From: Chthoniobacteraceae bacterium
GTDB taxonomy: Bacteria > Verrucomicrobiota > Verrucomicrobiia > Chthoniobacterales > Chthoniobacteraceae
DNA: 56,923 nt
Reading direction: 5' to 3'
NCBI GenBank assembly: GCA_031409655.1
Contig: JANNXQ010000214.1
Span: 1-56,923, forward strand
Positions 13,900 through 44,205 of this stretch are shown here, piece after piece. How positions within the stretch are numbered: the first letter of the stretch is position 1; each line of letters starts with the position of its first letter. Below the pieces are notes generated by a model that saw only the letters and a list, made by a program, of their open reading frames with translations, had not been told where the DNA came from and ran no database searches. A program made the translations under genes and the position numbers.

Positions 13900-14937
13900 A
13901 TGGCCACGAAAACTGAAACCGCCCCCGAAGAGACCAAGCTTGCCGCCGCGCAACGCAAGAATCTCGACCTCGCCATCCAGCAGATCGCCAAGGATTTCGG
14001 CGACGGCGCGATCATGCGGCTCGGGGAGTCCACGCATATGGACGTGGAGGTTATCCCGACGGGGAATATCCTCATCGACCGCGCGCTCGGCGTGGGCGGT
14101 TTTCCGCGCGGGCGCATCGTCGAGGTCTTCGGGCCGGAGTCGTCGGGCAAAACGACGCTCACCCTCACCCTCATCGCCAAGGCGCAGAAGCTCGGCGGGC
14201 TCGCGGCCTTCATCGACGTGGAGCATGCGCTCGATCCGCAGTATGCGAAGAAGCTCGGGGTGAATCTCGACGATCTTCTCGTCTCGCAGCCCAGCTCCGG
14301 CGAGGAAGCCCTGCGCATCGTCGAGACGCTGGTCCGCTCCAACGCCCTCGACGTCATCGTCCTCGATTCCGTGGCCGCGCTCGTGACCAAGCAGGAACTC
14401 GAAGGCGAGATCGGCGATTCCACCGTGGGCGCGCAGGCCCGGCTGATGAGCGCCGCGATGCGCAAGCTCACCGCGCTCATCGCCAAGGCGCGCACCATCG
14501 TCGTCTTCACGAATCAGATCCGTGAAAAGATCGGCGTGATGTTTGGCAATCCCGAGACGACGCCCGGCGGCAAGGCGCTGAAATTTTACTCCAGCGTGCG
14601 GGTCGATATCCGCCGCATCGGCGCGATCAAACAGGCCGACGGCACCGTGACCGGCAATCGCACCAAGGTGAAGATCGTGAAGAACAAGGTCGCGCCGCCG
14701 TTCCGCGAAGCGGAGTTCGACATCATGTACAACGAGGGCATCTCCTCGACCGGCGCGCTGCTCGATCTCGCCCTCGAAAAAGGCATCGTGGAAAAGCGCG
14801 GCTCCTGGCTCAGCTACAATGGCAGCCAGCTCGCCCAGGGGCGCGACGCCGCGAAGGAAATCCTCAAGAACGACGAGGCGATCTACGCCAGCATCGAGAC
14901 TGCGGTGAAGGCCAAGCTGGACGAAGAACCCAAGTAG
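13900..14937 (+). CDS. recA: Recombinase RecA
   Basis: [49 protein letters not shown]. Confidence 0.99.
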
Positions 14938-15091
14938 AAAATCCGAAACTCGAAATCCGAAATCCGAAACAAATTCCAAGGGCTGGAATTTCGGAAACGG
15001 ATTGGGGCCGGCCAGCTGCCGTCCATTTTCCCTCCTTCACGAAATTGATTTCCGTTTGTTGCGGATTTCGGATTTCGAGTTTCGGATTTTC
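14937..15091. repeat. Heptamer-periodic inverted repeat element A (unit AAATCCG)
   Basis: GAAAATCCGAAACTCGAAATCCGAAATCCG (14937-14966) is the exact reverse complement of 15062-15091. Confidence 0.92.
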
Positions 15092-15093
15092 CC

Positions 15094-15459
15094 TCACACG
15101 ACTGCGTTTTCGGTGAGTTCGTCGAGGGTCACAAATTCCAGCGTCGAGATGTGCGTGCCCGCGAGCACCACCGGCGGGGCCACGCCGGCGTCCAGAGCCT
15201 GCTTCCAACGCGTGACGCACAGGCACCAGCGGTCACCCGGCTCCAATCCCGGAAAGCCATAGGCGGGCACGGGCGTGGAGAGATCGTTGCCGGCGATCTG
15301 GGAAAATTCGAGGAACTCGGCGGTCACCTCCGTGCAGACCAGATGGAGCCCCACGTCGCCAGGGCCGGTATTGCAGCAGCCGTCGCGCAGCCAGCCAGTG
15401 AGCGGTTCAAAGCTGCACGGTTCGAGGTCTTCGCCGAGAACGTTTTTTGCGGTGGACAT
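15094..15459 (-). CDS. DUF2237 family protein
   Basis: NVLG..LEPCS..PLTG..RDGCC, GNDLSTP, FPGL.PGDRWCLC motifs. Confidence 0.88.
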   Translation of the reverse strand: MSTAKNVLGEDLEPCSFEPLTGWLRDGCCNTGPGDVGLHLVCTEVTAEFLEFSQIAGNDLSTPVPAYGFPGLEPGDRWCLCVTRWKQALDAGVAPPVVLAGTHISTLEFVTLDELTENAVV

Positions 15460-15552
15460 GGTCGTGGTGCGAAGCTGCCACAGCCGTCCGCCAACGCCAA
15501 GCCCGACGAACAATGTGCAACCTTCACCAGCCGCCGTAGTTCCCCATTCACT

Positions 15553-16473
15553 ATGTTCTTCCGCTGCCTCCTCCCGCTCTTTTTTGCCACCACCCTCCTC
15601 GCCCAGCGCCCTGCTTCCGAGGCCATCGAAGCGATGCGCGACCTTCCCTACGCTGGCACCGAGAATCCCCGCCAGAAGCTCGACCTTTACCTCCCGAAGA
15701 AACGCGCGGACGAAAAACCGCTGCCCGTCATCGTCTTCATCCACGGGGGTGGCTGGCAAAAGGGCGATAAATCCGGCGGCGCGCGCTACGTCGCCCCTTT
15801 CGTGGCGAGCGGGCGCTATGCGGGCATCTCCGTAGGCTACCGGTTGAGCGGCGAAGCGCGGTGGCCCGCGCAGATCCACGATTGCAAGGCGGCCATCCGC
15901 TGGATCCGCGCGCAGGCTGGCCCCTACGGCCTCGACCCGGAGCGCATTGGCGTCTGGGGCGCATCCGCCGGCGGGCATCTCGTCTCGCTGCTCGGGACCA
16001 GTGGCGGGGTCGCCGAGTTGGAAGGCGACCTCGGGCCGCACACCGCGCAGAGCAGTGGCGTCCGCTGCGTCGTGAATTTTTTCGGCCCTGAGGATTTCTT
16101 CACCTTGATCCCGCAGCCTGGCTGGGGCCAGCCCGTCGGGGCCGTGGGCGCGCTCTTCGGCGGCTCGCTCAATGACAACGCCGCCCTTGCCCGGGCAGCC
16201 TCACCCGTGACCCACGCCAGCGCCGACGACCCCGCGTTCTTCACCGCCCACGGCACCAAAGATCCGCTCGTCCCCTATGCCCAGGCGATCCAGATCGACG
16301 CTGCGCTGAAGAAAGTCGGCGTCCCTTCTCTGGTGATGGAAATGACCGGCGGCGGCCACGGCTTTCGGAGTCCGGAACTCGACCGGCGCATCACCCAGTT
16401 TTTCGACCTCCGGCTGCGCGGGGTGGAGAGTGAGATCGCCGTGACGCCGATCTCCGTCGCGGCCGGCGAGTAG
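15553..16473 (+). CDS. Exported alpha/beta hydrolase (esterase/lipase)
   Basis: Signal peptide, HGGGW, GASAGG nucleophile elbow, HGTKDPLVP, GGHG. Confidence 0.9.
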   Translation: MFFRCLLPLFFATTLLAQRPASEAIEAMRDLPYAGTENPRQKLDLYLPKKRADEKPLPVIVFIHGGGWQKGDKSGGARYVAPFVASGRYAGISVGYRLSGEARWPAQIHDCKAAIRWIRAQAGPYGLDPERIGVWGASAGGHLVSLLGTSGGVAELEGDLGPHTAQSSGVRCVVNFFGPEDFFTLIPQPGWGQPVGAVGALFGGSLNDNAALARAASPVTHASADDPAFFTAHGTKDPLVPYAQAIQIDAALKKVGVPSLVMEMTGGGHGFRSPELDRRITQFFDLRLRGVESEIAVTPISVAAGE

Positions 16474-16479
16474 CGCGCC

Positions 16480-42873: not shown

Positions 42874-42902
42874 GAAGGCTTCCGAGAATTCGCGGCCACG
42901 GT

Positions 42903-43014
42903 GAAAGCGGCGCGGGGCCGCGCCGCACTCCAAAGCGGCTGCGCCGCGAAACGAGACGTTCGGTTGGTTTCGCGCGGAGCGCTTTGGAGTGCGCTGCGTC
43001 CCCGCAGCGCTTTC
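42903..43014. repeat. TTGGAGTGCG-type REP-like doublet
   Basis: 35-nt arms 42903-42937 and 42980-43014 in inverted orientation, each with its own internal hairpin. Confidence 0.85.
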
Positions 43015-43146
43015 TCCCGCGCTCGGGCGTTCATAGCCGACCAGAAAGCAGCTGCGACGAGCGGAGGTCCTGCGCCGCGCACTTCAGCGCCGCAAAGCCA
43101 CGGTCCGGGGCGTCCGTGCTGCTGGCAGCGCTCTCCCCACCCGCCC

Positions 43147-44091
43147 TCAAAAGTACCGCCGAAATTCCTCCACCCGCGCCTCCAGCTTGCTCCGGAGCTG
43201 CGCGCGCGGATCGGGTGCTTCCCCACCGCGCGCCACGGCCACGCAGAGTTGCGTAAGCGCTTCGACATCCGCGATGGCGACAAATTCCGGCTCGATCTTC
43301 GTGTCCGATCCGCAGTTGTGATAGTTCCCCAGGGCCACACAGAGCGCCGCGCAGCGGTAGCCGTAGAGCTGATACGCGGTCGCTTCGCAGGTGCCGCCAC
43401 TCATCAGGCAGCGCTGCGCCGGGATCTTCTCGTCCTGCGCGATCTGCCAGAGCGTCGCGGTTTCATTCGGGTCGAAAATCGAGGTCCGATCCCCGACGCG
43501 CACGATCACGCCTTCGCCCATCTTTCCTGCGCCAGCGGCCTTTTCCGAACTGGTCTCCAGCGAAACGATGGTCGCCTCGCGCGGCACCCGGCCCGAGCGC
43601 GCGAGCTGGATGGCGCCGATGAAACCCACTTCCTCCGCCCGCGTGAAAAGCCCATAGACCGCGCCCTCCGCAGCGGCCGCTTCGAGTTCCTGAAACATCG
43701 TGACGATCGCCGCGCAGCCAATGAGATCGTCGCACGCCCGCGAATAGATCCGCCCGTCGCGCACTTCGCAGGCCGGCAGATCCCACATCGCATACGCGCC
43801 AAAATCACGCACCGGCGGTTTCGCCGCGCGATACTCCTCCGGCACGCCGCCGAGAAATTCCTCGCCGACAAAACCCGGGTGATCCATATGCGCCGCAAAG
43901 GCGTGGCCCGCGACTTCCTGCCCGCGCCGGTAGTGCGCGATCACATTGCCAAAGGCATCCTGCTCGACGCTGACGTGCGGGCACTGCGCGAGCTGCCTGA
44001 GGATCTCGGCGCGGACGGCGTCTTCGTGGAAAGGCGCGGTGGGCTGGGCGAGGAGGGCGCGGGTGGTGGCGAGGAGGCGGTCCAGACTCAT
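43147..44091 (-). CDS. M20/M28/M42-clan metallo-hydrolase (peptidase)
   Basis: QDAFGN, AHMDH, RACDD, AEEVG, GGTCE, GNYHN metal ligands. Confidence 0.85.
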   Translation of the reverse strand: MSLDRLLATTRALLAQPTAPFHEDAVRAEILRQLAQCPHVSVEQDAFGNVIAHYRRGQEVAGHAFAAHMDHPGFVGEEFLGGVPEEYRAAKPPVRDFGAYAMWDLPACEVRDGRIYSRACDDLIGCAAIVTMFQELEAAAAEGAVYGLFTRAEEVGFIGAIQLARSGRVPREATIVSLETSSEKAAGAGKMGEGVIVRVGDRTSIFDPNETATLWQIAQDEKIPAQRCLMSGGTCEATAYQLYGYRCAALCVALGNYHNCGSDTKIEPEFVAIADVEALTQLCVAVARGGEAPDPRAQLRSKLEARVEEFRRYF

Positions 44092-44097
44092 GGGGAA

Positions 44098-44205
44098 AAC
44101 ATCGAACGTCGAACATCGAACGTCGAACATCGAATGATGCGGCGTTCGCCTGCGCGCAATGCGCGACGTTCGATGTTCGATGTTCAAAGTTCGATGTTCG
44201 ACGTT
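44098..44205. repeat. Heptamer-periodic inverted repeat element F (unit AAC[A/G]TCG)
   Basis: Five units AACATCG/AACGTCG (44098-44132) face six units CGATGTT/CGACGTT/CAAAGTT (44164-44205). Confidence 0.92.

Follow-up and report, generated by a model that had tools for sequence, protein, structure and literature searches.

The stretch of DNA analysed here (the window) is 56,923 nucleotides long and is the entire contig C214 (JANNXQ010000214.1) of the genome of a Chthoniobacteraceae bacterium (GCA_031409655.1), which is 6.85 Mb in size, 95% complete and labelled G000 below; G001, G002 and so on denote related genomes, and L-numbers individual gene loci. Six places in the window consist of tandem 7-base units (heptamers), five of them built as two inverted arms that face each other across a loop. 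These loci are real and belong to a larger set of about 200 facing pairs in G000, where such arms also bracket genes of S23p/Avd-like four-helix-bundle proteins (PF05635/TIGR02436; hereafter 4HB). The neighbours of the six loci, called with a self-trained gene caller (starts are approximate) and assigned by family scans, are ordinary genes. The loci are as follows:

14937..15091 (arms 14937-14973 and 15055-15091), unstranded: facing arm pair of the AAATCCG family, whose imperfect stem continues inward, with the convergent recA and DUF2237 genes on either side
18306..18376 (arms 18306-18326 and 18356-18376), unstranded: facing arm pair of the AAGATTG/AAAATTG family, flanked by co-directional GH63-like and redoxin genes
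21480..21513, minus strand: single AAGTCGG-type arm, in frame within a nucleotidyltransferase gene (21289-22203), where it encodes RKSEVGNRNSEW
23357..23468 (arms 23357-23382 and 23443-23468), unstranded: facing arm pair of the AGAGTTG family, which stops just short of the start of a ferritin-like gene and has the stop of the upstream gene in one arm
24113..24268 (perfect arms 24113-24139 and 24242-24268), unstranded: facing long-arm pair of the AAGTTCC family, filling the gap of two co-directional genes
44098..44206 (arms 44098-44134 and 44164-44206, five units each plus AA), unstranded: facing arm pair of the AACRTCG family, taking up the greater part of the space that separates the divergent peptidase-like and lipid A acyltransferase genes

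An earlier note on this DNA had described the coordinates, the tandem heptamers and the five inverted pairs correctly, and the perfect complementarity of 30, 21 and 27 bp that it gave is found, counted from the ends, at 14937, 18306 and 24113. The loci are also AT-richer than their surroundings, as it had stated, with a GC content of 42-53% against 64% for the window. It had placed the loci between genes, which holds for the five facing pairs but not for 21480-21513, a single in-frame arm within a coding sequence. The loops of the pairs are 29-102 nt long and contain no PF05635 open reading frame (ORF). All five pairs fold at z-scores of -4.9 to -8.1, which none of 200 shuffles equals. Related copies of the 14937 element are found elsewhere in G000, and the element is absent after recA in the relatives examined; the arms at 18306 are 86-97% similar to other loci. 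The stop codon that ends the gene called at 23451-24110 is provided by the arm at 23443-23468. A scan of the window against Rfam gave no match, and neither did a scan for sigma-70 promoters and terminators between 43900 and 44400.

That the arms might be assembly artefacts, a possibility raised by the earlier note, is rejected on the basis of contigs from sequencing runs at 44098 and of orthologous elements in relatives. At 44098, contigs from three of four sequencing runs (all of one study, and one run possibly the source) span the flanking genes into the arms, and at 24113 a homologous element is present in G002. In a related contig from run X4, 104 different letters replace 151 at the 44098 site.

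Census and anatomy of the arms

Period 7 predominates throughout the genome. A strict scan of G000 found 313 arrays of period 7 against 1, 70, 11 and 29 of periods 5, 6, 8 and 9, and an inverted pattern with AA in phase has 307 matches at period 7 and none at period 8. Facing-arm layouts of period 8 occur in other families of the order (G219, G212, G173, G024, G128 and G141), with none in G000. A looser scan of period 7 returned 525 arrays, again AT-richer, and the dominant units are AACATCG, AAGGATG, AAACGCC-type, AGATTTC and AGAGTTG. G-quadruplex formation was considered and rejected, as these units contain no GGG run. The AA dinucleotide that the earlier note saw every 7 nt is strongly favoured, with AA or TT in 97% of the 525 consensus units as opposed to 73% after shuffling, but it is not universal: in some families, such as AGAGTTG, it is the pyrimidine arm that carries AA, and a relative has one arm pair that lacks it.

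Facing elements number 204 in G000, of which 134 lie in co-directional gaps, 45 in divergent and 9 in convergent gaps, 11 inside genes and 5 at contig edges. Among neighbouring arrays within 150 nt of each other, 131 of 153 are inverted with an identical unit (8% expected) and none is direct.

Arm length is family-specific, at four to six units. Five units are found in 91 of 154 AACATCG arms (geometric expectation 16) and four in 49 of 68 AAGGATG arms (expectation 10), while AAACGCC arms peak at six (33 of 87); the same peak recurs elsewhere, in 15 of 23 loci taken from other genomes. Each unit has three or four nearly invariant bases, AAC being 98-100% invariant, and a small set of variants, among which double changes far exceed independence (AAACTTC 61 against 20, AACACTG 19 against 3, AAGGCGG 12 against 2).

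The local homogenisation of arms proposed in the earlier note is not borne out, because the similarity of an arm to its partner is no greater than to the remaining arms of the family (mean rank 0.44-0.58). The 166 loops analysed are unique save for a few pairs and have the GC content of the genome, and a 4-mer target duplication is seen in 7.4% of the 204 elements compared with 7.8% of shuffled pairs, with at most two elements at 7-8 nt. As there is also no wobble bias (see below), neither arm is a copy of the other, and the element does not qualify as a classical miniature inverted-repeat transposable element (MITE).

Arms also occur in frame inside permissive loops of proteins, and 54 of the 525 arrays sit within 42 genes. 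A loop of UbiD carries arms of about seven units in 10-11 of 30 orthologues (judged by eye), and arms of two units surround its WPxAP loop, which occurs without repeats in six relatives. Arm swapping like that of UbiD is also seen in SHC, in an ABC transporter and in a heptosyltransferase. SMC carries arms at the identical two sites around a 50-residue hinge piece in four of 30 genomes, each from a different branch (6 of 70 in a wider set), and the arms at the first site are about as long as the host segment. Deletion from a cassette cannot yield this pattern, and arms must therefore also be placed or exchanged singly. The SMC hinge has two types that alternate on the tree, and the conserved histidines of one type are lost in every arm carrier. 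A complete in-frame arm pair is present in the PHP domain of a gene of the DNA polymerase III alpha family (L064, G000:C103:55078-58449). The recurring peptide KDEGGRMKDE was dropped as proof of a single template, since it also avoids an in-frame stop, although the variant is found in 11 non-coding arms too.

Four-helix-bundle cassettes and orthologous slots

The earlier note found no cognate enzyme in the window, and indeed no cognate 4HB protein is encoded there, but G000 has ten 4HB genes elsewhere. Strict period-7 arrays lie on both sides in six of the ten, whereas 4.7% of random windows contain any array. Inverted flanks score at least 22 in seven, including L007 with its 6-mer arms, and the remaining three are weak or degenerate (11-15). 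Of 14 long-range array pairs in G000, six enclose 4HB genes and one is a 9-mer hairpin, and the rest are host-gene spans linking separate elements, or noise. All six window loci and the ten cassettes sit among protein genes and not in 23S rRNA.

The association extends beyond this genome. Flanks are inverted in 70 and direct in 14 of the best 80 of 473 GTDB homologues of L009, and the best period is 7 in 65 and 70 of the 80. Close homologues carry AAC[AG]T[CT][CG] in several phyla, and distant ones shift to AATATCC or AATTGTC; among 4HB loci of the EKL.xW type, 13 of 19 have GTTGAGA-type arms. The 4HB types of L009, L005 and L166 go with AACATCG, AAGGATG and AGAGTTG units, respectively. Across 104 genomes of the family, the number of 4HB genes correlates with the number of elements (rho 0.71, and 0.74 at genus level, with kin that are not independent), and 42 of 73 genomes with 4HB genes are element-rich compared with 2 of 31 without.

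As for the protein, L001 matches TIGR02436 strongly and the Avd model weakly (E 1.7e-6, below the cut-off), and a 4HB homologue was crystallised with five chains (2RLD). Avd forms a pentameric RNA-binding barrel in which all five protomers contact RNA (bioRxiv 2023.10.23.563531). Two enzymatic partners were tried and rejected. No reverse transcriptase (RVT_1) was found in G000, and over the 104 genomes such genes show no association with element load (19 of 44 element-rich genomes and 33 of 60 others, p=0.32). A RAYT link was discarded as well, because none of 13 Y1_Tnp matches has an array within 500 nt.

Longer-period hairpins were observed alongside the heptamers: both GxxExxY genes (L011 and L012, on C84 and C28 of G000) are bracketed by them, and one is nested in a heptamer pair at G000:C277:7051-7472. 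Similar hairpins fill the trpE/trpG junction in G053 and G121.

In G000, the trpE/trpG and pdhB/pdhC junctions are both loaded, that is, they hold a cassette with its 4HB gene. Among the best 30 of 103 matches for trpE/trpG, 22 are syntenic: nine have gaps of at most 10 nt, five hold a loaded cassette and two a deleted one, and a pair without gene and a lone arm are found once each. For pdhB/pdhC, 27 of the best 30 of 99 are syntenic, with 14 short gaps, five loaded cassettes, one gene-less pair and two cases of mismatched left and right arms; the gene-less pair, in G006, has a different unit, that of the AAATCCG family of 14937. In G104 and G105, the beginning of the loop is the 5' end of the 4HB gene (scores of 20-23 against shuffle maxima of 14-15, for four of five loaded cassettes). 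Cassettes with facing arms of fixed length and invariant core thus occupy stop/start junctions that are empty in relatives, one slot has lost the gene and kept the arms, and in orthologous slots one or both arms may have another unit. The non-autonomous element suggested in the earlier note gains support from a slot that occurs with a loaded cassette, with a deleted one and with arms alone. Empty junctions were found in relatives, and target duplications were not. In G104, an NTP_transf_5 (nucleotidyltransferase) gene (L381:530-1501) has a gene-less pair on one side and a deleted cassette on the other, which hints that passenger genes may be framed by arms too.

The slots of the window vary in a similar manner. 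At 24113, G002 has a homologous AAGTTCC element, G001 and G003 have an AACATCG/AACATCC pair and G006 a single AGAGTTG-type arm, and in G012 the same gene is followed by an overlapping stop/start. At 44098, five relatives were searched and the orthologous slot was located in four, all of which have a facing pair, with at least three unit families: AACATCC in G003, AATGGTG in G001, AGGATTT in G012 and a degenerate pair in G006. The gap between the two divergent start codons at this slot (44085-44235, and L360) hardly exceeds the arm pair (91 nt in G012), and the promoters must therefore lie in or overlap the element. The 23357 junction is a plain 78-nt gap in G003. The 21480 site is as long in G002 as in G000 (90 nt between anchors) and carries an arm of opposite polarity there, and G001 and G003 have none (75 nt). 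The idea that architecture rather than sequence is what counts is thus right at the level of the site, with at least three families at 44098 and two plus a single arm of a third at 24113, but the units are not free, as a few dominate G000, each with an invariant core and a cognate 4HB subfamily.

Readings of the arm pairs

We favour the reading, with a probability of roughly 55%, that the six loci are gene-less arms of the kind that bracket 4HB genes, and likely non-autonomous footprints of the 4HB cassette, with arms that are likely bound by a pentameric 4HB protein and likely moved or swapped by recombination and not by a transposase. Each 4HB subfamily would bind its own unit on single-stranded DNA or RNA, with roughly one unit for each subunit. 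Such putative binding would hold arm length and core fixed and would favour the in-register exchange of arms, by which cassettes would enter slots and lose their gene, and arms would be replaced or placed singly. The purine-arm-first polarity is probably host selection, since it places a pyrimidine run before starts where Shine-Dalgarno use is scarce. The AAACGCC family has no polarity bias (16:17), unlike the other families, and some of its reverse pairs share loop sequence.

Several observations weigh against this cassette reading. G109, which is 96% complete, has 154 pattern matches and no PF05635 match; it may have lost the gene, have a divergent partner or be a counter-example. The AAACGCC family (87 arms) and several units of the window are without a cognate cassette among the ten 4HB genes of G000. 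The 4HB family is not a transposase family, and no catalytic protein was found. Arms have four, five or six full units depending on family and not a constant five. The resemblance of 162 loops to 90 cassette interiors equals that of random genome pieces (12.2 and 12.5), though it is above that of letter-shuffled loops, and thus deletion from a cassette is shown once and for no locus of the window. The enclosed SMC pieces are as distant from one another as from their own sisters, which is compatible with in-place conversion as well as with transfer of the whole piece. Finally, the correlation between 4HB genes and elements may stem from the joint arrival of gene and arms, without recognition.

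A host regulatory code seems unlikely to us. According to it, domesticated 4HB regulators would control translation or transcription through arms that are selected at gene ends, made by slippage and immobile. The pyrimidine arm does lie ahead of starts (124:33) and the purine arm after stops (94:41) in a genome with C-rich starts, where a Shine-Dalgarno-like word is found at 5% of 3122 of them, and a translational role has been proposed for TAACTGA repeats (PMC4679880). Convergent gaps are the sole depleted class (9 of 188, p=0.0013), the 44098 slot retains a pair in all four relatives located, and arms exceed fourfold sites in conservation in one genome pair (identity between G104 and G105 of 70/72 in the arms, 94/130 in the loop and 176/211 at fourfold sites). 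On the other hand, sister genomes have no element at the same junctions, 54 arrays are in coding interiors, the in-frame 21480 site has opposite polarities in G000 and G002, arm lengths are not geometric and the cassettes split tightly coupled genes.

Improbable, in our view, is a role as RNA stem, in which the arms would loop the insert out of the mRNA or be cut by RNase III, like the 23S intervening sequence, and gene-less pairs would be kept to hold stop and start close together. The stems are very stable, with a median of 38 bp of which 87% are Watson-Crick, and the purine-rich arm comes first in 150 of 204 elements, which lie a median of 6 nt from the upstream stop; the stem of Coxiella is cleaved by RNase III within the first heptamer (PMC4990558). 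However, the RNA-structure code that the earlier note had listed finds no support from G.U pairs, which show no bias over A.C on the sense strand (185 and 173, p=0.56), and partner arms do not co-vary. Moreover, 45 of 188 elements lie in divergent gaps, a partner within 170 nt is missing for 147 of 525 arrays, and mismatched pairs occur.

Enzymatic writing of the repeats likewise has a low probability. Here, a polymerase guided by the 4HB ring would add a fixed number of units at nicks on both strands and overwrite host DNA around a retained segment, with no cassette intermediate. This would suit the identical two sites in SMC on four branches with arms of about host segment length at the first, the UbiD arms around a loop that is repeat-free in six relatives, the lack of target duplication, the neighbouring arrays that are inverted and never direct, and the excess of double substitutions. 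It is opposed by the reverse transcriptase results given above, by the ambiguous ancestral state of UbiD, by SMC loops that are no nearer to their sisters than to one another in arm carriers, and by the existence of a deleted cassette.

A neutral by-product of slippage and of template switching that copies one arm to the other is very improbable, for although heptamers outnumber all other long repeat units in many bacteria, with slippage proposed as the cause (Mrazek 2007, as cited in PMC4679880), and variant units are perfectly mirrored in three window elements, it is at odds with the fixed length and invariant core, the lack of preference for the partner arm, the dominance of few units and the link to 4HB genes.

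Relation to known systems and significance

Parts of this picture are known separately. In Coxiella burnetii, an intervening sequence in 23S rRNA contains an S23p ORF within terminal inverted repeats, has tandem GACAGAT heptamers in its 5' arm, varies in copy number and shows decay of the ORF, as described in PMC4990558. The loaded copies of G000 fit this layout of a four-helix-bundle ORF in inverted heptamer arms, but the six window loci do not, and the Coxiella element is a single copy in rRNA excised by RNase III, whereas G000 has about 200 mostly gene-less pairs of many units between and inside protein genes. Xanthomonas GGGAATC and Nostoc GGGGAYT arrays number about 185 per genome, with four units preferred, 70-75 convergent pairs, and the purine strand after stops and the antisense before starts, and were interpreted as G-quadruplexes (PMC4692102). 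Fixed arms on the four-unit scale, convergent pairs and the purine strand after stops recur in G000. These arrays differ, however, in belonging to one unit family, while G000 units such as AACATCG and AAACGCC cannot form quadruplexes; they are depleted in divergent gaps, and G000 elements in convergent ones; and the portion of that paper considered here has no 4HB link or slot exchange.

In Geobacter metallireducens, hepta- and octanucleotide 'global regulator sites', proposed as IHF/HU sites, resemble the arms in that four or five units follow each other in tandem, pairs are formed across the two strands with variable spacing and some sites lie within genes, but the main text does not mention S23 (PMC2700814). 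In Nostoc, the P6b stem of trnL alternates between Class I and Class II heptamers, with repeated independent replacement of one motif by the other and an origin that is left unresolved; in contrast to G000, it is one locus in a structured RNA, for which no protein partner is proposed in the text considered (PMC4476775). Avd, the accessory protein of diversity-generating retroelements, shares the pentameric nucleic-acid-binding barrel and the weak, below-cut-off match of L001 to its model, but it binds a stem-loop and not a heptamer run, and G000 has no reverse transcriptase.

REP/REPIN-RAYT elements, MITEs and Rickettsia palindromic elements are likewise short, dispersed, non-autonomous palindromes that are tolerated in frame in proteins. 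The elements of G000 differ from them in having no Y1 link, target duplication or shared loops, and in their periodic arms of many units. As with MITEs, they have terminal inverted repeats in common with a gene-carrying element, the 4HB cassette, and one copy is internally deleted; unlike MITEs, they are not alike over their full length and have no cognate transposase. GC-rich, non-periodic palindromes of other families, which we take to be REP-like, are found in the window at 22236-22298, 24673-24819 and 42900-43017, and a perfect hexamer run, (GAGGAA) x5.5, lies at 34806-34838 at the start of a 1733-aa gene. Cyanobacterial STRR sequences, of types STRR1-3, are tandem heptamers of variable length; compared by description, they share the period, but the arms of G000 are short and of fixed length.

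Paired fixed-length heptamers (Xanthomonas, Geobacter), a gene between arms (Coxiella) and unit replacement (Nostoc P6b) are thus each on record, and we found no open-access paper that joins these, although neighbouring genes are listed in the supplements of PMC2700814 and PMC4692102 and may include 4HB genes. What is contributed here is the fixed arm length, the invariant core and its repertoire, the finding that partner arms do not co-vary, the range of slot states, among them a deleted cassette and mismatched arms, and the correlation across genomes.

A broader scheme is possible, though doubtful. A pentameric Avd-like ring would read the heptamer code at one unit per subunit and drive exchange without transposase or reverse transcriptase, placing arms of fixed length on either strand, rewriting resident arms with its own unit and making the enclosed DNA swappable, be it its own gene, a passenger or a piece of SMC. 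Bacterial heptamer repeats, ORF-bearing rRNA intervening sequences and the class switches of Nostoc P6b would then all go back to one cause.

In terms of the cassette reading, the pairing of subfamily and unit, the fixed length and the invariant core make 4HB binding directly testable with built-in negative controls. If the arms are exchange sites, they represent a type of mobility that involves neither a transposase nor a reverse transcriptase and leaves no target duplication, and by which peptides of 10-40 residues are written into core enzymes (42 genes here), and this affects the annotation of such loops as well as phylogenies that use them. The arm pairs are likely the leftovers and exchangeable ends of an undescribed mobile cassette, and this cassette may be the reason why 7-base repeats are common in bacteria. 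Two orphans, the excess of such repeats and the widespread S23 four-helix-bundle proteins of unknown function, are thus possibly one system.

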